A DNA stretch of 64,000 nucleotides from sequence record MT446408.1; one strand, given 5' to 3'. This stretch comes from Escherichia virus TH35. The translations under genes were made by a program, and so were the position numbers. Below, piece after piece: positions 1,832 to 16,053 of the stretch; within the stretch, counting starts at the first letter, position 1, and each line of letters starts with the position of its first letter. The notes under the pieces are model-generated. The model was not told the DNA's origin, ran no database searches, and saw only the letters and a program-made list of their open reading frames with translations.

Positions 1832-1990
1832 TGTTGACGTAAATTTACGAAAAATAAAACTGAAAATCAGTTTAATTAAAGTGGCATTGCCGCCATAGTT
1901 TTTAGTTGCTACTGGCGGCGACTGAAGGCATAATTAAGTTATCCCAAACGGGGAATATAAAATAAACTAATTTATTTAAGGACTGTGAAT

Positions 1991-2830
1991 ATGGCCGAAG
2001 CAATCAAAGTATTATCTAAAGAAGAAAAACAAGCAGCCGCAGCAGAACGTCGTCGCGTGGCTGAAGAAAAACGCCTGGCTAAAAAGAAAGAAGCCGAAGA
2101 AAAACGCCAGAAGCGTGAGCAGGAAAAACAAGCCAAGCGTGAAGAAGCTGCGCTGAAACGCAAGCAGGCTGCTGATGAGAAGGCTCAGAAGCGTGCTGAA
2201 GAAGCAGCTAAGAAAGCTAAAGAGCGTGCAGAAAAGGCTGCTGCTAAGAAAGCAGAGCGTGAAGCCGCTAAAGCAGCAAAAGAAATCGAAAAGGCAAAGG
2301 CTAAAGAAGAAGCCAAGCGCCTGAAAGCTGAGCAGGCTGCGGCCAAGAAAGCAGAGCGTGATCAAGCCCGTGCTGCAGCGAAGGCCGAAAAAGAGAAGGC
2401 CAAAGAAGAAGCTAAAGCGAAACGCAAGGCAGAGCGTGAAGCTGCTAAGATTGCGGCGAAAGAAGCTGCAGAACAGCAGAAAGAACAGCGTAAGAAAGAA
2501 GCTGAAGAACGTCGCAAAGCCATCGCAGAACGTAAGGCTGCTAAAAAGGCAAACGGTCAGCGTCGTGCAAAAGCCACTCACTTCATCTACACTGGCAATG
2601 GCCTGAGCCAGCCGCAAGAGCATTCCACCCGTGGACGCGTTCTGGCGGCGATCAAAGAAGGCGAAGTTGGCGTGGCGCAGTCTATCGATGAGCTGGGCGA
2701 AAAAGTTAAAGATCAACTGTTTGGCGCTTCCGTTCGCTCCTACCTGAGCAAGCTGGAAGAGATGGGCCACATCGAGTTTGTCGATGTTGAATCCAACGAC
2801 GATGCCGAAGACGGTGATCAAGCGGAATAA
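1991..2830 (+). CDS. Lys/Ala/Glu-rich low-complexity charged protein with small acidic C-terminal domain
   Basis: ATG 1991 with AAGGA RBS (track start 1985 is GTG); about 200 aa of KAE repeats then HFIYTGNGL...DDAEDGDQAE; promoter-like TTGCTA-17-CATAAT upstream, terminator downstream. Confidence 0.65.
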   Translation: MAEAIKVLSKEEKQAAAAERRRVAEEKRLAKKKEAEEKRQKREQEKQAKREEAALKRKQAADEKAQKRAEEAAKKAKERAEKAAAKKAEREAAKAAKEIEKAKAKEEAKRLKAEQAAAKKAERDQARAAAKAEKEKAKEEAKAKRKAEREAAKIAAKEAAEQQKEQRKKEAEERRKAIAERKAAKKANGQRRAKATHFIYTGNGLSQPQEHSTRGRVLAAIKEGEVGVAQSIDELGEKVKDQLFGASVRSYLSKLEEMGHIEFVDVESNDDAEDGDQAE

Positions 2831-2884: not shown

Positions 2885-2969
2885 CGTCTGTACTAAATAG
2901 AAATGACTTGTTGCTGTAAAATAATTTAGCTATTATACTTCTCATATCACCCACAAAGGACAAATGAAC

Positions 2970-3959
2970 ATGAAACAACCTGTAATGATTATCGGCGGCG
3001 GTTTGGCAGGACTTATTACCGCGTGTCACTTCCCGAACTCCATTGTGTACGAAGCAGGGGAACGAGCGCCACAGCACAAGGCGCTGCTACGCTTTCGCGG
3101 CGAAGAAGTAAGCCGTATTACCGGAATCCCTTTTAAGGCCGTGACAGTCGATAAGGCTGTGTATTTTCGTGGTAACTACTATCACGACCACTGCCCGATT
3201 AACCTTGCCAACATGTACTCTATGAAAGTCACCAACCAGTTTGGCAGCCGCTCAATCATGAAGCTTCAAACCGCTACGCGCTACATAGCGCCGGATGACT
3301 TTTATGATCAACTTGTCGATAAGCTTGGCGACCGTATATTCTTCAATACTCCGGTCGACACCCTCTGCGGCTATAGCGAGACGCCAATCATCAATACATC
3401 GCCGCTGCCCGTCATGATGAAGCTTGCTGGCATTGATCAAAAGCTCGACTTCTCGTTTGATAAGGCAAATATACGCGTTTATCGTTTTAAGATTAAGCGC
3501 AAGTGTGAACTGTATCAAACAATTTACTTCCCTGACTATTCTGTAAGGACTTACCGCGCATCAATTACTGGTGACACGCTGATTATCGAAACAATTCCAT
3601 TGGTAAGCGTCAGCGCGGCAGCAGTTGAAGCCGCTGGCGGCATTACCCGTTATCGCGACATGAAGTTGCGTGCAGAAGTGGACGAAGTTCTGACCGCTTT
3701 TGGTCTTTCATGGAATGACATCTCTTTGGAAGAAGTTGAAAAGGTTGACCAGAAGTATGGCAAGATTGTCGACATTCCTAAAGACTTGCGCCACGCCTTA
3801 CTGCTCCAGCTGACTATGGATTTGAACGTGTTTAGTGTCGGTCGATTTGCTACATGGCGCAACATCTTGCTTGATGACGTAGCTCATGACCTTGTTGAAG
3901 TTGAAAAACTCATCAAAGCAAATAACTATCAAAAATTTGCTTATATTGCTAATAAATAA
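2970..3959 (+). CDS. FAD/NAD(P)-binding Rossmann-fold oxidoreductase
   Basis: N-terminal GxGxxG dinucleotide-binding motif VMIIGGGLAGL; start taken at second ATG (2970) for RBS spacing, track start 2964. Confidence 0.6.
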   Translation: MKQPVMIIGGGLAGLITACHFPNSIVYEAGERAPQHKALLRFRGEEVSRITGIPFKAVTVDKAVYFRGNYYHDHCPINLANMYSMKVTNQFGSRSIMKLQTATRYIAPDDFYDQLVDKLGDRIFFNTPVDTLCGYSETPIINTSPLPVMMKLAGIDQKLDFSFDKANIRVYRFKIKRKCELYQTIYFPDYSVRTYRASITGDTLIIETIPLVSVSAAAVEAAGGITRYRDMKLRAEVDEVLTAFGLSWNDISLEEVEKVDQKYGKIVDIPKDLRHALLLQLTMDLNVFSVGRFATWRNILLDDVAHDLVEVEKLIKANNYQKFAYIANK

Positions 3960-4004
3960 TTTGCTTTCTGCTTCAATGAGAGTATACTTTAATCATTGAA
4001 GCAG
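3960..4004 (+). promoter_or_regulatory. sigma70-like promoter with 12-bp inverted repeat bracketing the -10
   Basis: TTTGCT(3960-3965)-17 bp-TATACT(3983-3988); palindrome CTGCTTCAATGA 3968-3979 / TCATTGAAGCAG 3993-4004. Confidence 0.4.
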
Positions 4005-4025
4005 AACTCATAAGAGGAAATGAAG

Positions 4026-4472
4026 ATGAAACGCATCACTGGAATCGCGCTTGCCGCAACTGCTATTCTCGGAACCATGTATATGGAAGCGACTGAAGCC
4101 GCTGTCCGTACTTCCGATTCAATCGCTGTTTACGATTGCGAAGCGATGGACGGCAAGACCGCAGCGACGACTGGCGCAACAATTACCACTTACATCGGTG
4201 TGAACGAGCAAGAAGGTCTGAATATTCAGATTCAGGGATTCACCGGAAAAGGTGCCAACCGGACTCCGTGGATGCAGCGTTTCACTTTCGTTCAGCCTCG
4301 TTCAACTGGCGGCTTTATCAACCTGATTGGTGAAAACCGTTCTGGTGCAGAAATCTTTACATCAATTAGTTCTAATAATGAACCAAAGAAAAGTTTTCAG
4401 TTGCTTTATAACGCACAATTCGTTTATCATTGCACCTTCTCTGGTGATCAGCAACTAGTTAACTACCGTTAA
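4026..4472 (+). CDS. secreted/periplasmic protein of unknown function
   Basis: N-terminal signal peptide MKRITGIALAATAILG...ATEAA; AAGAGGA RBS 7 nt upstream of ATG 4026 (track start 4020). Confidence 0.6.
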   Translation: MKRITGIALAATAILGTMYMEATEAAVRTSDSIAVYDCEAMDGKTAATTGATITTYIGVNEQEGLNIQIQGFTGKGANRTPWMQRFTFVQPRSTGGFINLIGENRSGAEIFTSISSNNEPKKSFQLLYNAQFVYHCTFSGDQQLVNYR

Positions 4473-4485
4473 TAGGATAATTAAA

Positions 4486-5289
4486 ATGAAAGTTGAATTA
4501 ATTCGATACACCCAAGATGCACTTGACCTTTTGCTGGAAACAAAGAATACGCGCATGACTGGTAAGCCAGTCTCTGAGATGACAGAATCAGAGAAGCAAG
4601 AGCACTGGCGCTACATGCTTGACACCATCAAGTCACCTTTCGACTTTGTTGACTATATCTTTGACATCACTGATGTATCAAAGAATATGACTCATCAGAT
4701 GGTGCGCACACGAACAGGTGCATATCAAGAACGCACAAGCCGCGCTCAGGAGTCGTCAGCATTTGATGCGATTCGTCCTGCCAAATTTACTTACCCAGAG
4801 GATGATCCAAAGGGATGGACTCGTCATGACGAGAAGGCTGCTGAACTGGCAGAGAAATGGGATGATGCAATGGCAACCATTGACGCCCTATACCAAGAAC
4901 TTCGCGCGGCTGGCGCAGAGATTCAAGATGCACGTGCCGTGTTGCCTTCTAATATGCAAACGCATATCATGGCAAAGTTTAATTTGCGCACCCTGCAGCA
5001 AATGGCCTCTAACCGCTTGTGCACACGTACTCAAGGCGAGTATCAAGAAGTATTCCGTGCAATGGTTGCGGAAGTCCTTAAGGTGCACCCGTGGGCTAAT
5101 CCTTTACTACAGCCGCAGTGCATCGGTATGGGTAAGTGCGCATTCCCTCGTCACGGTAAGGCCCATTGCCCATGGTATCGTGATTGGATGGATACCACTG
5201 CACAGCAAGAAGAATTACGCATTCAGTTTTGGAATGCAATGCCAATCACCAATAATCCAGTGGCCAAAGATGGAGTATCAAAAGGATGA
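4486..5289 (+). CDS. thyX: flavin-dependent thymidylate synthase-like protein (ThyX family), non-canonical RTR motif
   Basis: ThyX-like blocks PFDFVDYIFDI, ARAVLPSNMQTHIMAKFNLRTLQQM and C-terminal HCPW; signature reads RTR-x7-T instead of RHR-x7-S. Confidence 0.7.
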   Translation: MKVELIRYTQDALDLLLETKNTRMTGKPVSEMTESEKQEHWRYMLDTIKSPFDFVDYIFDITDVSKNMTHQMVRTRTGAYQERTSRAQESSAFDAIRPAKFTYPEDDPKGWTRHDEKAAELAEKWDDAMATIDALYQELRAAGAEIQDARAVLPSNMQTHIMAKFNLRTLQQMASNRLCTRTQGEYQEVFRAMVAEVLKVHPWANPLLQPQCIGMGKCAFPRHGKAHCPWYRDWMDTTAQQEELRIQFWNAMPITNNPVAKDGVSKG

Positions 5290-6158
5290 GTATCAAAAAT
5301 AACCAAATCTTAAACGTATTCGACCTTGACGGAACTCTGTTTGATGACCGTTGGCGCTTAGACCGCATCAAGGTGGCAGGTCCGTTGTCAGACTATGATG
5401 ATTATCACAGCGGTATTGGTTATGATCAGTTCTATCCTCACATTGCATCAGCAGTAGAGTCGGCATCTCTTCGCGGTGAGGCGGTTGAATATTGGACTGC
5501 AAGGCCAGAAAAATACAGACAAGTGACTTTTGAACGTCTGGACAATGTTTTTCCTTTTGATGAATTTACAATCAAGATGAGAGACTATGGCGACAAACGT
5601 CCATCAACTATTATGAAATCTGCATGGCTATCGCACGCTTTGCGGCACGGCGATTATCGAATCATCAATGTATTCGACGACCGACAAGACGTACTCGCGC
5701 GGATGCAAGATGAAGCATTGTGTTATAATTCCGTTGCTCAAAATAAAATCGCTTTTACATTTAATCTTTGCAAGGCAGGTGAAGTGGTGCAACAATTAGC
5801 AATTGATCCAAGCGCAACAGGGCAAGAAGAGACTAAGTCTGTGGAAGTTGAACAATCTCCGGCAACTGCCGCCGATATTCTTGATGCAATGGCAGCAACC
5901 TTCCGTGAGCGCAACGCTGTCTATGGCGATAACGCTGTGATGGTAGGTCAGGTTATGCAAGTGCTTTTCCCTAATGGCGTGACGTTGAAAACGCCGGAAG
6001 ACTACCACATGTGGCATCTGTTCGAGCTTAAGATTGTCAAGCTTACACGCTTCGCAATCAGCGGCCTGAAGCACGAAGACTCTATACACGATGATGGTGT
6101 TTACAGCGCCATGTGTGAACGTCTTGTTAACACCCATAATATTAATTTCAATAAATAG
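5286..6158 (+). CDS. HAD-superfamily phosphatase with C-terminal domain of unknown function
   Basis: HAD motif I FDLDGTLFDD near N-terminus; ATGA overlap with thyX-like gene. Confidence 0.6.
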   Translation: MSIKNNQILNVFDLDGTLFDDRWRLDRIKVAGPLSDYDDYHSGIGYDQFYPHIASAVESASLRGEAVEYWTARPEKYRQVTFERLDNVFPFDEFTIKMRDYGDKRPSTIMKSAWLSHALRHGDYRIINVFDDRQDVLARMQDEALCYNSVAQNKIAFTFNLCKAGEVVQQLAIDPSATGQEETKSVEVEQSPATAADILDAMAATFRERNAVYGDNAVMVGQVMQVLFPNGVTLKTPEDYHMWHLFELKIVKLTRFAISGLKHEDSIHDDGVYSAMCERLVNTHNINFNK

Positions 6159-6202
6159 TTTACTTGTGCGTTTCGATGAGTTATCTTTATCTCATCGAAA
6201 CG
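6159..6202 (+). promoter_or_regulatory. sigma70-like promoter with perfect 12-bp inverted repeat bracketing the -10
   Basis: TTTACT(6159-6164)-17 bp-TATCTT(6182-6187); CGTTTCGATGAG 6169-6180 / CTCATCGAAACG 6191-6202; downstream CATCGAAACGAA shared with promoter at 13088. Confidence 0.4.
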
Positions 6203-6222
6203 AAGTCCAAAAGGATAAATAA

Positions 6223-6906
6223 ATGAAAAAAGTAATTGTTGTAACTGGCTGCAATTCCGGTCTTGGTAAATCCATTTTTGACACCCTTGGCGCTTACGGT
6301 CATGAAGTTGTCGGTATTGATTTGGAGAACGGCTATGACATCCGTAACGCGAAACAGATGAAAGAGCTTCTCTCTCAATACGACGTAGAAGGCTTGATCA
6401 ACTGCGCTGGCGTCAACTCCAACAACTGGTTCGAAGATGTTAACTACGAAGAGTTCAATCGCGTTATGCACACCAACGCCTTCTCTTTCGTCAACACGAC
6501 TCAGGCCGCGCTGAAAAGTCTTATTGACAACAAAGGTTTTGTGATCAACATCGTTTCCAACGCTGCGCATATTCCTATGACGTCCAGCTTGTGTTATAAT
6601 GCTTCCAAGGCTGCTGCGCTCATGATTAGCAAGCAGATGGCTCACGAGCTTACGCCTAAATACGGGATCACGGTGTTCTCTATTAGTCCTAACAAGCTAC
6701 GTGGTACTGGCATGTCCAAACAGATTGAAGATGCTGTTTGCGCGACTCGCGACTGGACTCCTGAGTATGCTGCTGAATACCAGAAAAAGGCGTTGATGAA
6801 TGGATTGGAGACTGAGCCGCAAGTAATTGCTGACTTCATTCGACATATCTTAATTACGGGCGCATGGCGCTTTATGTCTGGTACTGATATTCCATTTGGG
6901 AAATAA
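6223..6906 (+). CDS. short-chain dehydrogenase/reductase (SDR) family oxidoreductase
   Basis: TGxxxGxG cofactor motif VTGCNSGLGK, NCAG, catalytic YxxxK (YNASK). Confidence 0.7.
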   Translation: MKKVIVVTGCNSGLGKSIFDTLGAYGHEVVGIDLENGYDIRNAKQMKELLSQYDVEGLINCAGVNSNNWFEDVNYEEFNRVMHTNAFSFVNTTQAALKSLIDNKGFVINIVSNAAHIPMTSSLCYNASKAAALMISKQMAHELTPKYGITVFSISPNKLRGTGMSKQIEDAVCATRDWTPEYAAEYQKKALMNGLETEPQVIADFIRHILITGAWRFMSGTDIPFGK

Positions 6907-6909
6907 ATC

Positions 6910-7080
6910 ATGACTATCAAAGTTGTTGTAGAAGTGATTGGCGACTTGGCAGAAGTGAAGATTGATCAAGAAGGCGTTGGATTTGAAGTAATAAGAATCG
7001 AAAACGCAAAGATTAACCACGAGCGCGTCGGTTCCATTGAGACTTATTCCATAGAAGGCAACACAGTAATTAATCAATAA
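6910..7080 (+). CDS. small hypothetical protein (56 aa)
   Basis: ORF below track threshold found by reading the 6907-7100 gap; MTIKVVVEVIGDLAEV...; weak RBS. Confidence 0.35.
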   Translation: MTIKVVVEVIGDLAEVKIDQEGVGFEVIRIENAKINHERVGSIETYSIEGNTVINQ

Positions 7081-7100
7081 TATTTAATTAAGGAAACAAA

Positions 7101-7652
7101 ATGCCACATTTTAAAATTGAACAAATCGCCCTGTCAATTCCATGTGCTCAGCGCGCACAGAATTTCCTGGCTAAAATCGGCCTGACAGAATGGTTCCATG
7201 ATCACGTTGTTGCTACTGGTCGCGTATTTGAAGCTGATGTCTTTAAGGGTCAGCGCGGCGATTGCACCAACGAAGCTGACTTGCGCTTCAACTATCAGGC
7301 TGGCAACGGCACCGATGGCGGCGCTGGTAAGCCTCTTGAGCTTGAAATTCTTGACTATACAAAAGGTTGCAACTGGATTCACGAAAACATCGAATACATC
7401 GATGCGCACGACAATCAGGTTAGCCATCTTGGTATGCACGTGACTGCCGCTGAACTTGCTGAATGGCGTAAGTTCTTTAAAGAAGAAGGTATTCAGGTTG
7501 CACAGGAAGTTGTAACTGACTCTCATACCAACCCGAACATTGCTGGTCAACGTCGTTACAACTATGTGATCTTTGATACGCGTGAAATCATCGGCGTTGA
7601 TTTGAAGTTTATCGTGCGCTTGAATCAAGACGGTACTCCGTACACTGTATAA
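7101..7652 (+). CDS. putative VOC (glyoxalase/bleomycin-resistance/dioxygenase-like) family protein
   Basis: two beta-alpha-beta-like modules starting FKIEQIALSIP and SHLGMHVTAAEL; AAGGAAA RBS; assignment by fold-pattern only. Confidence 0.4.
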   Translation: MPHFKIEQIALSIPCAQRAQNFLAKIGLTEWFHDHVVATGRVFEADVFKGQRGDCTNEADLRFNYQAGNGTDGGAGKPLELEILDYTKGCNWIHENIEYIDAHDNQVSHLGMHVTAAELAEWRKFFKEEGIQVAQEVVTDSHTNPNIAGQRRYNYVIFDTREIIGVDLKFIVRLNQDGTPYTV

Positions 7653-7668
7653 CGAATCGTGAATCTGT

Positions 7669-7693
7669 GGCCGTCCTAATGGGCGGCCTTTTT
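7669..7693 (+). terminator. rho-independent terminator
   Basis: GGCCGTCC-taat-GGGCGGCC hairpin followed by TTTTT. Confidence 0.6.
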
Positions 7694-7706
7694 GTAGGAG
7701 GCTAAT

Positions 7707-8249
7707 GTGTTATTTCTCCCTTATGACTTCGAAACAACCGGATTGACCGTGCACCCGAAAGCGCCGCTTGGGATGCAGCCGCGCCCTATTGAATTTGCAG
7801 GTCTGTTGACAGACGGCAAAGAGATTCTTGAAACGTTTGAATTCATAATTAATCCTGAAATCGTGATTGAAGAAATTATCACAAAGATTACCGGATTAAC
7901 AAATGAAGACCTTGAGTGCAATCCACCATTCATCAATTTTGTCCCGCAGCTAAAAGAAATCTTCAAGAAGACGGATGCCACTATCGCGCACAACCATGCG
8001 TTCGATAAAAACATTCTTGATTATGCACTACAGCGCGAAGGACTTACGCTTGATGGTGTTAATTTTCCAGAAATAAACATTTGTACAGTTGAGCAAACCT
8101 TGCCTATTTTTGGCCGAAGAGTTAAGCTTCAAGAGCTGTATGAATTATATTTCGGAAAATATGAACAGAAACACCGTGCATTAGACGACGTAATATTACT
8201 GCACAAAGTCTGCCAACAAATTGGCGTATATGACATCTGGAGTAAATAA
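7707..8249 (+). CDS. DnaQ-like 3'-5' exonuclease (proofreading epsilon-like)
   Basis: Exo I motif DFETTGL, Exo III motif HRALDDV; GTG start with AGGAGG RBS; stop overlaps polymerase start. Confidence 0.75.
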   Translation: MLFLPYDFETTGLTVHPKAPLGMQPRPIEFAGLLTDGKEILETFEFIINPEIVIEEIITKITGLTNEDLECNPPFINFVPQLKEIFKKTDATIAHNHAFDKNILDYALQREGLTLDGVNFPEINICTVEQTLPIFGRRVKLQELYELYFGKYEQKHRALDDVILLHKVCQQIGVYDIWSK

Positions 8250-11146
8250 TGTTTCCACAATTGAGAGTTCGCAGCGGTTACACGTTCAAAGAAGTTTATG
8301 GACGGCATCCTGAAATTATAGCACGGCTCAAAGAGTTGGGCTGCGAAGTCGCGGCATTAGTTGATAACAACACATGGGGTCACGTTCGCTGGGAAAAGGA
8401 ATGCCAGAAAAATGATATTAAGCCTATGTTTGGGATGGAGATTCCAATCATCGACCCTGATGCGGACCCGAAAAAGGGATTCAAACCGAAGGCTTGGATA
8501 TTGGCCCTTGACTTGAAATCTTTTTACAATGCTACAACACTTGCAACGCAGCGCGGTGGACTTACCCGTTCAGAGTTCGGTGCGCTCGATGGCGTCGTTA
8601 AATTCTGTGGCGGTGCCGTGGAGTTGCTGCGGCCAGAGGACTACGACTATATAGACGTCAACCCATCATCGTTCCTTTTGGCAAAGCGCCAGGCATTGGC
8701 TCATCGTAGCAGTGGAAGGCCGCTGGTTTTAACCGGATACAATCACATGCCTTCACCTGAGCACGTTGACTTTGCTTATGCGTGGGAAGTGCGCGACACG
8801 GTTAAGCCGCATTGCATCGTTGACGTTGAAGACTTGCGCAAACAGCTTAAAGGCATCTTGACTGAAGATGAACTTGATCAGGCAACGGCCAATGCTGTGG
8901 ACATCGCAAACGGCATAGTCGGGCTTGACTTGAAATTGCGTAAGGCACCGATTATTCACCTTGCTGGTGACATGGTAAAGCTTGCTCGCGAGGGTATGGA
9001 GTACCGTCTAAAAGCAGGTCACATCAAAGAATGGACTCAGGAATACGAGGACCGCTTCAACGAAGAAATTCACCAGATTCAGCTGAAAGATTTCGACTCA
9101 TACTTTCTGGTGGTAGCGGACCTTGTACGATTCGCAAAAACAAAAATGCTCGTCGGTCCTGCGCGCGGCTCATCGGCTGGTTCACTTGTTTGCTATTGCC
9201 TCGGCATCACGGAAGTGGACCCAATCCCGTATAAGCTGCTGTTTGCCCGATTCATCGACGTAAGTCGCGCCGACCTTCCTGACATCGACATCGACTTTGA
9301 AGATACCAAACGCTATATGGTGTTTGATTATCTCAAAGAGAAATACGGCGAAATGAATGTTGCAAAGCTTGGCAACATCAACACGCTTAAGGCCAACTCA
9401 GTAATGGCGCAGGTTGGTAAGAAGTTCAACATTGGATACCACGAAACGGCCAACATTAAAAACGCACTGCTTGAATACTCATCCGGTGACGCCCGTTATG
9501 GTCACGGCCTGGAGGATACCTTTGCAACAACGACCACGGGCCAAGAGTTCGTGGCGAAATATCCTGACGCCGCGCGTTGCATGGGTGACCTTGAGATTCA
9601 CCCTTCCCACACAGGGGTGCACGCAGCGGGAATCATCGTGTGTAATGACCCAATCTCTGATTACTGTACTGTAACTGCGGAAGGGATTGCGCAAATCGAT
9701 AAGCCTGACAGCGAGTACCTTAACCTTTTGAAGCTTGATGCACTGGGCCTTCGTACTCTCGGCATTATTTCTGATACAGGCGTTATTGATGCTGAAACGC
9801 TCTACGGAATCAAGCTTGATGATCAAAGCGTACTTGACATTCTTAACGAAAACAAGATGTCAGGCATCTTCCAGTTTGAAGGTGACGCTGTACGCTCAGT
9901 AACAAACTTTGTGCACGTCGACAACTTTAACAAAATCGACAACCTGACAGCTTTGGGTCGACCTGGCCCGTTGTCATCCGGTATGGCCCAGAAATACATT
10001 GAACGCGCGGCAGGGCGTGCGCCGATTGAGTACGACGTGCCGCAGCTTGAGCCGTACTTGAAAGAGACTTACGGCGTGTTTCTTTACCAAGAGCAAATCA
10101 TGGCCGTGGTTAAAGAGATTGGTTCATTTGACTGGGCGAAAACGTCAGCTGTGCGTAAGGCGATGTCAGGCCGTAAGGGTGAAGAATACTTTAACAAGCT
10201 TGGCGAGGACTTTGTTGCAGGCGCAATCAATAACGGCGTACCGGAAGCGGATGCAAGAAAGCTTTGGCAAGCGATGGCCACGTTCGGGTCATGGGGCTTT
10301 AACAAGTCACACTCCGTGTCATACGCGGTCGTGACCTACTGGACCTTGTGGCTTAAGCGACACTACCCGTTGGAATTTGCCGCTGCCTGCTTACGCGCTG
10401 CTAAGGACGAAGACCAGACGATTGCGATATTACGTGAACTAGCGAAGGAAGGCGTGGATTATGTGCCAATCGACCCTGATCACTCTTCGATGAACTGGAC
10501 CATCGCGAACGGAAAGCTAATCGGCGGCATCATGAACGCGAAAGGATACGGAATGGTGAAGGCGATGAAGTATATCGAAGCGCGTGAAGCCGGAACCTTA
10601 ACGCAAAAGCAAAAGGACGCATTGGCCAATGCTGAAGTCAAATACGGCGACCTTACAGAGATGCACACAAAGTTCGGCTGGGCGTATAATGACCCGTATC
10701 TGATTGGTGTGACGTCCGGCGCTTCAATACGCCAGATGAAGGAAGTCGGTGATGACGAGCGTGCAATAGTAATCGGCAAGTTGACAAAGAAAGTGCTTGC
10801 AGACGAGAACGAAGCGACACGCATCCGTAAACGACTTGAGCGCGGCATCTATACAAAGCACGGCAAGCTTAAAAAAGGTCTTCAAGCTGATGGCCGCTAC
10901 GCAGAGTTTGACCAGTACGGAAACAAGCTTGAGACTCAGTTCATCGACCTTATGTGCAAAGACGACTCGACCGACTCGCCAATGCGCTTCAGGATTCGTC
11001 CAGAAAAGTTCCAGAAGTACGGGAAATACATTGCTGAAAACGTCGGGAACGGCGCATTCTTCCTGATGAAAGGTCGCAAGCTTGAAGGCATTGACATGTT
11101 CATAGTCGACGTTATCAAACAGGTGTATCCAGATGGCAACAAATAA
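8249..11146 (+). CDS. dnaE: DnaE-type (Pol III alpha-like, family C) DNA polymerase
   Basis: motif GPARGSSAGSLVCYCLGITEVDPIPYKLLFARFIDVSRADLPDIDIDFE matching the Pol III alpha active-site region; 965 aa. Confidence 0.85.
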   Translation: MFPQLRVRSGYTFKEVYGRHPEIIARLKELGCEVAALVDNNTWGHVRWEKECQKNDIKPMFGMEIPIIDPDADPKKGFKPKAWILALDLKSFYNATTLATQRGGLTRSEFGALDGVVKFCGGAVELLRPEDYDYIDVNPSSFLLAKRQALAHRSSGRPLVLTGYNHMPSPEHVDFAYAWEVRDTVKPHCIVDVEDLRKQLKGILTEDELDQATANAVDIANGIVGLDLKLRKAPIIHLAGDMVKLAREGMEYRLKAGHIKEWTQEYEDRFNEEIHQIQLKDFDSYFLVVADLVRFAKTKMLVGPARGSSAGSLVCYCLGITEVDPIPYKLLFARFIDVSRADLPDIDIDFEDTKRYMVFDYLKEKYGEMNVAKLGNINTLKANSVMAQVGKKFNIGYHETANIKNALLEYSSGDARYGHGLEDTFATTTTGQEFVAKYPDAARCMGDLEIHPSHTGVHAAGIIVCNDPISDYCTVTAEGIAQIDKPDSEYLNLLKLDALGLRTLGIISDTGVIDAETLYGIKLDDQSVLDILNENKMSGIFQFEGDAVRSVTNFVHVDNFNKIDNLTALGRPGPLSSGMAQKYIERAAGRAPIEYDVPQLEPYLKETYGVFLYQEQIMAVVKEIGSFDWAKTSAVRKAMSGRKGEEYFNKLGEDFVAGAINNGVPEADARKLWQAMATFGSWGFNKSHSVSYAVVTYWTLWLKRHYPLEFAAACLRAAKDEDQTIAILRELAKEGVDYVPIDPDHSSMNWTIANGKLIGGIMNAKGYGMVKAMKYIEAREAGTLTQKQKDALANAEVKYGDLTEMHTKFGWAYNDPYLIGVTSGASIRQMKEVGDDERAIVIGKLTKKVLADENEATRIRKRLERGIYTKHGKLKKGLQADGRYAEFDQYGNKLETQFIDLMCKDDSTDSPMRFRIRPEKFQKYGKYIAENVGNGAFFLMKGRKLEGIDMFIVDVIKQVYPDGNK

Positions 11147-14944: not shown

Positions 14945-15463
14945 ATGATAGAAAGAATTGTACCACTCCTGAAGATTATGGCCCTTGTTGGCGCGTTTGC
15001 CGCTGGATCATACGTTGAAGACCTGCAGCAAACCAACGCATCACTGGCCAAGGATAACCAATATCTGACATCGCTTAATGAGCGTAAGGACAAGATAAAT
15101 GCACTCGAAGAGCAAATTGCATCTTTACAGGTTGAATCGGCATCGGCATATGAGAAAGGTCGCCAGGAAGCGCAACTGGTTGCTGATGACACTATTGCTC
15201 GTTACAAGTCTGGGAATATCAAGTTGCGCGAGCAACTCAGCTGCTCCCGTGAGTTACTCAGGAGTGTGCCCGACTCTGCGACCACTGGACGCCTCTCTAT
15301 CCCAGAAGGAAACTGTGGACTATCAGAAGAAGATGTCAGATTTCTTGTTCAGTTCGCCGCAGAAACAAACCGATTAAAAGATAAAGTTAATAGCTTGATT
15401 GATACTTATAATCAGGCTAAAATAAAAATCGATCAATTCAATGCATCAAAGGAAAATAAATGA
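14945..15463 (+). CDS. i-spanin (Rz-like)
   Basis: N-terminal TMD IVPLLKIMALVGAFAAGSYV, periplasmic coiled coil, conserved Cys; carries embedded +1-frame lipoprotein ORF. Confidence 0.6.
   Translation: MIERIVPLLKIMALVGAFAAGSYVEDLQQTNASLAKDNQYLTSLNERKDKINALEEQIASLQVESASAYEKGRQEAQLVADDTIARYKSGNIKLREQLSCSRELLRSVPDSATTGRLSIPEGNCGLSEEDVRFLVQFAAETNRLKDKVNSLIDTYNQAKIKIDQFNASKENK
15150..15377 (+). CDS. o-spanin (Rz1-like) lipoprotein, embedded in i-spanin gene
   Basis: ATG 15150; signal MRKVARKRNWLLMTLLLVTSLGISS-C with lipobox ISSC; short Pro-containing mature part; wholly inside 14945-15463 in another frame. Confidence 0.55.
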   Translation: MRKVARKRNWLLMTLLLVTSLGISSCASNSAAPVSYSGVCPTLRPLDASLSQKETVDYQKKMSDFLFSSPQKQTD

Positions 15464-16053
15464 AACAGATTTATGCAAACATTCGCCAGTGGGCTTCTGA
15501 CCGTAACATCATCCAAGGTTGCGACCTTAAGGACCAATACCCGAAGCTTATCAGCGAGTTTGGGGAGTTAACCGACCACGTTGATCAACTCCATGACCTT
15601 GTGTTCTTTGACCATGAAATTGAATATACAGAGCAGGCCATCTGTGACCTGCAGGCCGCAATCAAGGACGACATTGGTGATTGTCTTGTTGTATTGACTA
15701 TCCTTGCCGCGCAAAATGGTGCAAAAATCGAAGACATCAACGGCGGCGGTTGCGCTGACAAAGGTGCCCACCCTCACTCGTTTATCCTTCGCTTGGCAAA
15801 GACTCTCGGACGGCTTGGTGACGCCATTGCTAAAAATCAGAGCATGGATATTGATGTCACCATCATGGTCGCAGTCGATTACCTTTCCGGCGTAGCTCAT
15901 GATTATGGCCTTCGCTTATCCGACTGTGCGCAAGCGGCCTACGAAGACATCAAGGACCGCAAAGGTGTCATGTACAACGGCACGTTTATCAAATCGACTG
16001 ATCAGGCTTACGCCTATGCGCTGGAACAAGTAATGAATGAGGGGAAAGAGTGA
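15460..16053 (+). CDS. MazG-like nucleotide pyrophosphohydrolase (putative)
   Basis: all-alpha NTP-PPase-like motifs KLISEFGELTDHV and DIGDCLVVLTILA. Confidence 0.5.
   Translation: MKQIYANIRQWASDRNIIQGCDLKDQYPKLISEFGELTDHVDQLHDLVFFDHEIEYTEQAICDLQAAIKDDIGDCLVVLTILAAQNGAKIEDINGGGCADKGAHPHSFILRLAKTLGRLGDAIAKNQSMDIDVTIMVAVDYLSGVAHDYGLRLSDCAQAAYEDIKDRKGVMYNGTFIKSTDQAYAYALEQVMNEGKE

Follow-up and report, generated by a model that had tools for sequence, protein, structure and literature searches.

The window analyzed here is a 64,000-nt stretch of Escherichia virus TH35 (MT446408.1), a member of Wifcevirus; its positions 2900-7700 share 92-95% nucleotide identity with 28 Wifcevirus genomes, including those of ManiWeber/Bas99, FEC19, WFH, ECML-117 and Mansfield. 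Wifcevirus comprises ~68 kb myoviruses of Escherichia coli and Shigella that are distant kin of the Pseudomonas genus Pbunavirus (PMC11990801). Here, we describe a block of genes at 2964-7652 that is probably, by a narrow judgment, a cassette for sugar-derived thymidine hypermodification of phage DNA, a change that would shield the genome from restriction endonucleases. An original prediction, made from the sequence alone, had claimed seven consecutive forward genes, and all seven open reading frames (ORFs) were found on the + strand between 2964 and 7652:

2964-3959, + strand: flavoprotein, 331 aa, with a probable UGM/PPOX/amine-oxidase (GR2) fold; phrog_4828 (unannotated)
4020-4472, + strand: 150-aa protein with a signal-peptide-like N-terminus; outside the conserved cassette
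4486-5289, + strand: divergent ThyX-family flavoenzyme, 267 aa; Thy1 match, dUMP-binding Arg/Gln set kept
5286-6158, + strand: HAD phosphatase (residues ~1-165), linker and all-alpha domain (residues ~190-290), together "HAD-alpha"
6223-6906, + strand: classical SDR, 227 aa, with TGxxxGxG (VTGCNSGLG), NCAG and S...YxxxK (S...YNASK) motifs
6910-7080, + strand: 56-aa ORF; outside the conserved cassette
7101-7652, + strand: VOC-superfamily protein, 183 aa; a single chain of two modules with methylmalonyl-CoA-epimerase-like topology

Conservation and spread of the cassette

The set of five enzyme domains (flavoprotein, ThyX, HAD with alpha, SDR and VOC) is a conserved, phage-exclusive cassette and not a chance neighborhood. 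By tblastn, the flavoprotein is found in 361 phage records, HAD-alpha in 383, the SDR in 113 and the VOC protein in 54. Records of the flavoprotein and of HAD-alpha are near-equal in number by taxon (Pseudomonas, 292/293; Escherichia, 26/26; Serratia, 9/9). The flavoprotein gene adjoins those for ThyX and HAD in the Cronobacter podophage Ss1 (42 kb), a Rhizobium jumbo phage (206 kb), a Ralstonia phage (40 kb), a Salmonella phage and Pbunavirus. We refer to the flavoprotein, ThyX and HAD-alpha as the "core". Relatives infecting Xanthomonas, Aeromonas and Serratia have the complete set, including the SDR and VOC genes. A literature search found no paper assigning a function to the cassette genes.

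Gene order is equally constant. We retrieved 80 viral loci from IMG/VR by means of the VOC protein and scanned them with custom hidden Markov models (HMMs); the order flavoprotein-ThyX-HAD-alpha-SDR-VOC-DnaQ-DnaE is seen in essentially all loci with sufficient flank. A scan of one genome per species, covering 185,579 prokaryotic species, gave 6 loci, all on phage-like contigs of metagenome-assembled genomes (MAGs) and all with the identical order. In a set of 5.8 billion proteins, 1,912 clusters belong to the flavoprotein family and 690 to the VOC family; the best 120 matches for each family lie mostly on short fragments, and the longest contigs among them are phage-genome-sized (~40-73 kb). 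Overlaps of 4 nt join the flavoprotein, ThyX and HAD genes in several lineages, including several MAG contigs, and in the window the HAD-alpha and ThyX genes share 4 nt at the ThyX stop codon. The cassette is always accompanied by DnaQ/DnaE, a Dda helicase and a primase, with DnaQ and DnaE as its constant downstream neighbors in every lineage examined.

The signal-peptide and 56-aa proteins, which the original prediction had counted among the cluster's members, do not belong to this conserved unit. Homologs of the 150-aa protein occur at four Wifcevirus loci only, among the 80 viral loci, and those of the 56-aa ORF are confined to some Wifcevirus genomes. Both are lineage-specific inserts.

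Related arrangements are seen in actinophages. In Microbacterium phage RikSengupta, a row of genes just 5' of DnaE encodes a Rossmann flavoprotein, an NT5C-like HAD, an SDR, a VOC protein and an alpha protein. The SDR (30% identity, E=1e-24) and VOC (34%, E=3e-18) genes are adjacent, and the separate alpha-domain gene after VOC has 49% identity over 63 residues (E=3e-16). In mycobacteriophage Gumball and Gordonia phage Gibbin, the order is flavoprotein-HAD-methyltransferase-SDR-DnaE, and ThyX is encoded nearby. The extension to actinophages is weaker, because homology of the flavoprotein is shown for the nucleotide-binding motif alone.

The core enzymes

The flavoprotein has an N-terminal GxGxxG dinucleotide-binding motif, Glu30 and a C-terminal GRFATW...LLDD motif, and many Arg/Lys/His residues are invariant in its family. 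It has no sequence match in Pfam, NCBIfam or the PDB; GLF and NAD_binding_8 gave no Pfam or NCBIfam match even at E<=10, and the match in a profile search of the PDB is limited to the GxGxxG segment. Scores against PPOX and amine oxidases are nearly as good as those against UGM (UDP-galactopyranose mutase, Glf). Searches of Pfam, NCBIfam, PHROGs and the PDB with phmmer and hmmsearch likewise gave nothing specific for the flavoprotein, the VOC protein, the 150-aa protein or the 56-aa ORF.

The second core enzyme matches Thy1 (PF02511) across profile positions 2-191 of 191, with 107.2 bits (gathering cut-off 24.8; 1.1e-30); against the NCBIfam equivalog TIGR02170, it scores 83.1 bits, under the cut-off of 87.9. 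Equivalents of Q75, R78, R80, R90, R147, N163, R165, R174, Q180 and E182 of Thermotoga maritima ThyX are all kept. His79 is replaced by Thr (RHR becomes RTR, with R-T/N/Q-R across the family), Ser88 by Thr, and Tyr91 by Ala (Ala, Ile or Val in the family). T. maritima His53 aligns to Ile48, and this Ile is invariant in six proteobacterial-type phage ThyX proteins (alignment A2); for the ThyX of actinophage Gumball, the position is not confidently aligned (alignment A4). Koehn et al. are said to have found in 2012 that T. maritima His53 stacks on the folate pterin.

Toward its C-terminus, the phage enzyme carries a four-Cys pattern (RLC...QC...KC...HC; window 5100-5289, residues ~178-230) plus an NPVA.(D/N)G motif. 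Both features, which suggest a Zn or Fe-S site, are common to the ThyX proteins of Wifcevirus, Pbunavirus (PB1-like), Xanthomonas and Aeromonas phages and mycobacteriophage Gumball, and are absent from the shorter ThyX proteins of Ss1, the Rhizobium and Ralstonia phages, and an uncultured 54-57 kb lineage. The original prediction gave ThyX an obvious role in dNTP supply, but this protein departs from a standard thymidylate synthase. It shares with canonical ThyX (TIGR02170/PF02511) a full-length Thy1 domain and the conserved dUMP-site residues. It differs from canonical ThyX by its sub-equivalog score, RTR for RHR, Ile for His53, the loss of Tyr91 and the extra four-Cys segment.

The third core enzyme is a fusion. 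Its HAD part has intact DxDGT, T-x-R, K and DD motifs, with D13, D15, G16, T71, R73, K111, D131 and D132 invariant in seven homologs, and matches HAD_PNKP with 33.4 bits (cut-off 27.6). The C-terminal extra ~110 residues, with the motifs R..xYGD ... KLTRF ... HEDS..D..VY, have no Pfam match in the window protein. The C-terminus of the Cronobacter Ss1 ortholog matches DUF3310 at 4e-9, and the Salmonella and Pseudomonas orthologs match DUF6378 weakly, at 0.005 and 0.15, which is below the cut-off. In the 54-57 kb uncultured lineage, the alpha domain is a separate gene (~103-135 aa) from HAD (~152 aa). On a 58.8 kb contig from a Bacilli MAG (L100:10986-11918), an alpha-like segment appears to be joined, in the same frame, to the N-terminal end of the VOC domain; HMM support for this fusion is weak, and the motifs R.EK..LYGES and DSLLD..NY are present, in order. 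A separate alpha-domain gene was not found on that contig. The original prediction of a HAD phosphatase with an extra C-terminal domain was correct as to presence, but the extra part is an independent module, probably of DUF3310/DUF6378 type. Gumball gp66 and Gibbin gp74, picked by eye as further alpha domains, were unsupported by HMM or BLAST.

A ~70 kb sub-lineage in IMG/VR (L028, L029, L034, L049, L088 and L090) has a second HAD-like ORF of 167-264 aa between the flavoprotein and ThyX genes, besides HAD-alpha.

The putative tailoring enzymes

The SDR matches adh_short with 110 bits, and its best PDB matches are FabG-type, at 1e-12. A preference for NAD(H) is suggested by an Asp that closes beta2 (GID). 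No specific subfamily was found: FabG, acetoin reductase and dihydrodiol dehydrogenase are similarly weak matches. The possibility that the SDR is a FolM/pteridine-reductase-type supplier of pterin to ThyX was dropped, because its best matches are similar and weak across families and offer no subfamily placement.

The VOC protein has no significant profile match. An AlphaFold model (pLDDT 94) has paired beta-alpha-beta-beta-beta modules, and a Foldseek search with this model retrieved methylmalonyl-CoA epimerases (5.8e-7) and HPPD; the topology is unlike that of glyoxalase I or bleomycin-binding proteins. PF13669 is found in some members of the family. The invariant residues Q8, E80/E82, H109/H113 and D167 lie at the expected strand positions and are candidate metal ligands; SHTN and R..Y.Y motifs are invariant as well. 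One VOC homolog, L091:9896-10504 (202 aa), is encoded on a ~70.6 kb viral contig with no other cassette gene within 10 kb; its neighbors encode DUF3846, DUF6011 and uncharacterized proteins.

Restriction resistance and modified thymidine

In BASEL, Wifcevirus resists every tested restriction system except EcoP1_I, with "no known genome protection mechanism" (PMC11990801). The efficiency of plating of Bas98-100 is ~0.3-1.5 on EcoRI, EcoRV, EcoCFT_I and EcoCFT_II, with zero plaques on EcoP1_I (PMC11990801 raw data). We reproduced the published site counts on the genome of ManiWeber, with 89 for AGACC, 19 for GAATTC (listed as 38), 4 for GATATC (listed as 8) and 5 for EcoKI. The EcoCFT_II site is presumably CACAG, which occurs 92 times in ManiWeber, as listed, although four other 5-mers also occur 92 times. 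AGACC/GGTCT contains no TG, whereas CACAG/CTGTG does, which fits the contrast between EcoP1_I and EcoCFT_II.

The relevance of TG comes from Pbunavirus. Virion DNA of the Pbunavirus phages F8 and 14-1 blocks enzymes with TG-containing sites (Yee et al. 2025 preprint, PMC12191111). The novel nucleosides 362 U and 390 U replace ~1/4 of T, in the TG context, and are thymidine derivatives of the sugar-alcohol (C4) or pentose type (PMC12191111). F8 and 14-1 were described as having no known modification genes (PMC12191111), and in later papers the biosynthetic genes are not assigned. Both phages carry the flavoprotein-ThyX-HAD-alpha core at the matching position. In the window, T followed by G makes up 26.4% of all T, in agreement with "one quarter". 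By our own arithmetic, 362.13 equals 5-hydroxymethyldeoxyuridine (hmdU) plus tetritol minus H2O, the same formula as deoxyuridine with a C-linked tetrahydroxypentyl chain; 390.13 (14-1) equals hmdU plus pentose minus H2O, i.e., it would be the pentose analog of base J.

Other candidate genes are scarce. No glycosyltransferase, kinase, TET/JBP, dioxygenase or radical-SAM gene is annotated in Wifcevirus genomes or was found in Pfam scans of the other window ORFs. Similarly, no 5-hmdU DNA kinase, aGPT-Pplase or ThyA-type dUMP hydroxymethylase is annotated in three Wifcevirus genomes or was found by Pfam in the other window ORFs. The metabolic enzymes of the genome consist of the cassette plus one MazG-like gene.

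Bas98-100 form no plaques on EcoP1_I in any replicate, a stronger restriction than is usual for ~89 sites. This total block may involve more than a simple absence of AGACC protection.

A possible pathway for thymidine hypermodification

The modification reading is favored because the cassette is conserved and phage-only, because modified Pbunavirus phages have its core, and because the restriction resistance of Wifcevirus is otherwise unexplained. The original proposal of a DNA-base or nucleotide modification pathway that includes ThyX is thus the best-supported reading, on evidence that is indirect. The cassette is best explained as being expressed together with the replication genes.

In the pathway that we propose, the ThyX-family enzyme, with its dUMP pocket kept and no folate-stacking His, would perform chemistry at the C5 exocyclic carbon. 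It might yield 5-hydroxymethyl-dUMP, or else form or capture the 5-methylene intermediate whose reduction is the usual task of ThyX. The UGM-fold flavoprotein would handle the sugar, for which erythrose-4-P and pentose-5-P are the obvious donors. In UGM-type enzymes, N5 of the reduced flavin attacks the anomeric carbon of the sugar, opening or activating it, and C5 chemistry of the ThyX type involves a flavin-N5 iminium and a 5-methylene intermediate. The two would therefore make an apt pair for joining a sugar to the thymine methyl carbon, and a phosphatase would suit sugar-phosphate donors. The alpha domain, as kin of the NTP-pyrophosphatase-like DUF3310/DUF6378, together with HAD, may remove pyrophosphate or phosphate from a nucleotide or sugar-phosphate intermediate. 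The NAD-type SDR and the epimerase-like VOC protein might tailor the sugar by keto/alditol redox, epimerization or isomerization, a step that would be limited to Wifcevirus and its Serratia, Xanthomonas and Aeromonas relatives. Since the SDR and VOC genes are added to the core, the Wifcevirus modification is predicted to be related to, yet distinct from, that of Pbunavirus.

A more specific version of this chemistry is speculative, and we think it unlikely to be right as formulated: ThyX and the flavoprotein may perform a new flavin-iminium coupling of a tetrose or pentose phosphate to the C5 exocyclic carbon. The substrate could be a uracil/thymine nucleotide or thymine within DNA. In one conceivable route, the ThyX 5-methylene intermediate would be trapped; in another, a flavin-N5-bound sugar carbon would be transferred in place of the folate-derived methylene. 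If true, this coupling would make sugar-alcohol or pentosyl thymidines by a new kind of enzymatic synthesis, and thousands of phages would use it, including the therapeutic Pbunavirus group, Wifcevirus, relatives infecting plant pathogens and, probably, actinophages.

Several observations weigh against assigning hypermodification to the cassette. (i) The case that ties the cassette to the Pbunavirus modification is one of association. F8 and 14-1 have equal gene content at the locus despite their different modifications; HAD-alpha is 79% identical between them (HAD core, 87%) and its neighbors 94-98%, and some small ORFs have also diverged. As a guide to what determines 362 U versus 390 U, this comparison gives a weak hint at HAD-alpha and the small ORFs, part of the divergence being in the repeat-containing linker. 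(ii) The EcoRI and EcoRV sites lack TG, yet Wifcevirus is unrestricted by both enzymes. TG modification of the Pbunavirus type alone therefore cannot explain the phenotype; any Wifcevirus mark must occur in a wider or another sequence context, unless a further mechanism adds to the protection. A literature search found no restriction digests or nucleoside analyses by liquid chromatography-mass spectrometry of Wifcevirus or Carpasinavirus DNA. (iii) The dUMP-phosphate-binding arginines of the phage ThyX are intact, as they would be in a standard thymidylate synthase acting on mononucleotides. For a mark to be TG-specific, some step has to read the sequence at the level of DNA, and the cassette proteins have no recognized DNA-binding or transferase domain. 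(iv) The synteny of the cassette could be inherited with the DnaE replication module and not reflect a shared pathway. (v) With hhalign, homology between the flavoproteins of proteobacterial phages and actinophages is unsupported outside GxGxxG.

Alternative explanations

In the main rival explanation, the cassette performs ordinary nucleotide-pool housekeeping tied to the replication module, and any DNA modification is due to other, unrecognized genes. The enzyme at 4486-5289 would then be a true ThyX; HAD-alpha would act as a dNTP/dNMP pyrophosphatase-phosphatase, keeping the pyrimidine pool balanced or clean; and the flavoprotein, SDR and VOC protein would provide cofactor or redox support or be unrelated. 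The full-length Thy1 match (1.1e-30) and the retention of the R78, R80, R90, R147 and R174 equivalents are as expected for a true ThyX, and the HAD part resembles PNKP and NT5C (deoxyribonucleotidase) types. The constant company of DnaQ/DnaE, the Dda helicase and the primase means that synteny may be inherited, and neither a transferase nor a DNA-binding domain was found among the cassette proteins. However, housekeeping leaves unexplained the strict co-inheritance and coupling with ThyX, across phage types, of a UGM-fold flavoprotein that has no cellular homolog, as well as the joint spread of the SDR, VOC protein and alpha domain into actinophages. The ThyX itself lacks the folate-stacking His and falls under the equivalog cut-off, and no other modification-gene candidates were found in Pbunavirus, where DNA is known to be protected, or in Wifcevirus, where protection is suspected. 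The original prediction had left the matter of housekeeping to homology searches, and in these none of the four non-ThyX enzymes fits a specific known housekeeping family. We consider the housekeeping explanation to be unlikely, albeit a serious competitor.

The resemblance of the flavoprotein to UGM could instead point to an auxiliary sugar or nucleotide-sugar pathway that supplies, e.g., UDP-galactofuranose or a pentofuranose donor for the host envelope or a small molecule, and not for DNA. This is very unlikely: annotations and Pfam scans revealed no glycosyltransferase or nucleotidyltransferase in the genome, the flavoprotein scores near-equally against PPOX and amine oxidases and has no Pfam GLF match, and the cassette sits in the replication module, between terminators and beside ThyX, in phages whose hosts, both Gram-negative and Gram-positive, have unrelated envelopes.

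Least plausible of all, and scarcely to be credited, is a damage repair or detoxification set (a glyoxalase-like VOC protein, a carbonyl reductase, an amadoriase-like flavin oxidase and a 3'-phosphatase guarding DnaE replication): the HAD is of the PNKP 3'-phosphatase type, the VOC superfamily takes in glyoxalase I and bleomycin-binding proteins, and a pyrimidine-dimer glycosylase-like gene lies 5' of the module in the Microbacterium phage, but the VOC topology is that of epimerases and HPPD, strict coupling to ThyX would have no evident reason, and glycation repair seems implausible given short lytic cycles. Glycation repair, NAD repair (renalase-like) and anti-viperin detoxification were set aside, since each leaves the coupling to ThyX unexplained.

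Comparison with known DNA modification systems

One of the closest comparisons for sugar-derived hypermodification by the cassette is Pbunavirus itself, a sister genus with the same layout of the replication module. The core homologs of F8 and 14-1 are 38-40% (flavoprotein), 56% (ThyX) and 32% (HAD-alpha) identical to the window proteins, and a sugar-derived mark on thymidine would fit the pairing of a ThyX-type with a UGM-type enzyme. Pbunavirus differs from Wifcevirus in having no SDR or VOC genes, and its DNA is cut by EcoRI, whereas Wifcevirus is unrestricted by EcoRI in vivo.

In phages M6, ViI, PaMx11 and PhiW-14, T is partly replaced by a bulky derivative substituted at the C5-methyl, which blocks endonucleases (Lee et al., PMC8989533). 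There, too, a thymidylate-synthase-type enzyme supplies the C5 one-carbon unit, and a flavin oxidoreductase can be involved (PaMx11 gp47) (PMC8989533). The pathways of these phages rely on a dUMP hydroxymethylase of the ThyA family, a 5-hmdU DNA kinase and aGPT-Pplase amino-acid:DNA transferases, with PLP or radical-SAM tailoring, and they append amino acids or polyamines rather than sugars (PMC8989533). None of these enzymes is annotated in Wifcevirus. Wifcevirus differs in having a thymidylate-synthase-like enzyme of the ThyX family, whose partners are the UGM-fold flavoprotein, HAD, SDR and VOC. Base J (glucosyl-hydroxymethyluracil) of kinetoplastids and the glucosyl-hydroxymethylcytosine of T-even phages resemble the proposed mark in being pyrimidines of DNA that bear a sugar via the C5 exocyclic carbon; they are made by Fe/2OG hydroxylases or a dCMP hydroxymethylase plus glycosyltransferases, none of which was found in Wifcevirus.

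Pbunavirus phages, whose hypermodified DNA was recently found, are among the most used therapeutic phages for Pseudomonas aeruginosa. Our analysis names a small, testable set of three core and two tailoring genes, the core being common to Pbunavirus and Wifcevirus and the set to hundreds of uncultured phages. Two open questions, i.e., which genes hypermodify Pbunavirus DNA and what causes the restriction resistance of Wifcevirus, are thereby reduced to one five-gene test. If the cassette does hypermodify thymidine, its enzymology would be unlike the known kinase/transferase route. It would also explain host-range and defense phenotypes, including those toward END nucleases and type II/III restriction-modification, provide sequence markers that predict DNA hypermodification, and offer new flavoenzymes for DNA chemistry.

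Regulatory signals and neighboring genes

The following signals and flanking genes were identified:

2857-2877, + strand: intrinsic terminator, 5'; 8-bp stem with 5 GC pairs, then TTTTTTT; terminates the upstream K/E-rich gene
2908-2936, + strand: sigma-70-like promoter candidate, the best for the cassette; TTGTTG, 17-nt spacer, TATTAT; picked by eye
2955-2960, + strand: ribosome-binding site AAAGGA, ahead of the flavoprotein gene
3966-4006, + strand: inverted repeat with perfect 14-nt arms and a 13-nt loop, enclosing the -10-like TATACT; in the spacer 5' of the 150-aa gene
6169-6202, + strand: inverted repeat with 15-nt arms and a 4-nt loop; in the spacer 5' of the SDR gene; conserved in relatives
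7669-7688, + strand: intrinsic terminator, 3'; 8-bp stem with 7 GC pairs and a TTTTT tail; precedes the DnaQ-DnaE operon
7707-8249, + strand: DnaQ-like 3'-5' exonuclease; context, outside the pathway claim
8249-11146, + strand: DnaE-type PolIII alpha; context, outside the pathway claim

The block is bracketed by the two strong intrinsic terminators, both of which have counterparts in the annotation of phage Mansfield; they mark the 5' and 3' limits of the cassette transcription unit. The best promoter candidate scores under the scan threshold and lies in a region that is 97-100% conserved among Wifcevirus relatives. Of the individual promoters with palindromic operators that had been described for these genes, what remains is a pair of hairpins around weak -10-like hexamers, with a -35-like TTGCTT or TTTACT ahead; promoter-like matches in the block are no more frequent than in shuffled sequence. 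The hairpin arms are identical in six Wifcevirus genomes, with substitutions confined to the loops, among relatives that are too similar for a covariation test. The hairpins could serve as regulated internal promoters, as sites of RNA processing or as stability elements.

Upstream of the cassette, window 1985-2830 encodes a Lys/Glu/Ala-rich 281-aa protein (phrog_4765), called "TolA-like" in some relatives. In the ~60-73 kb myovirus lineage, this gene is always 5' of the cassette, after a Dda/RecD-type helicase. In RikSengupta (L010:6311-9808), the DnaE-like polymerase is annotated as two ORFs (6311-7345 and 7553-9808) with a small ORF between them, which could reflect a split gene, an intron or intein, or a frameshift. 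Elsewhere in the window, a MazG-like pyrophosphohydrolase gene at 15460-16053 adjoins the DNA ligase gene; its Pfam match is weak, and it is so annotated in Mansfield and ManiWeber. It is the sole nucleotide-metabolism enzyme in the genome besides the cassette, and in Gordonia phage Gibbin, MazG is encoded right after DnaE.

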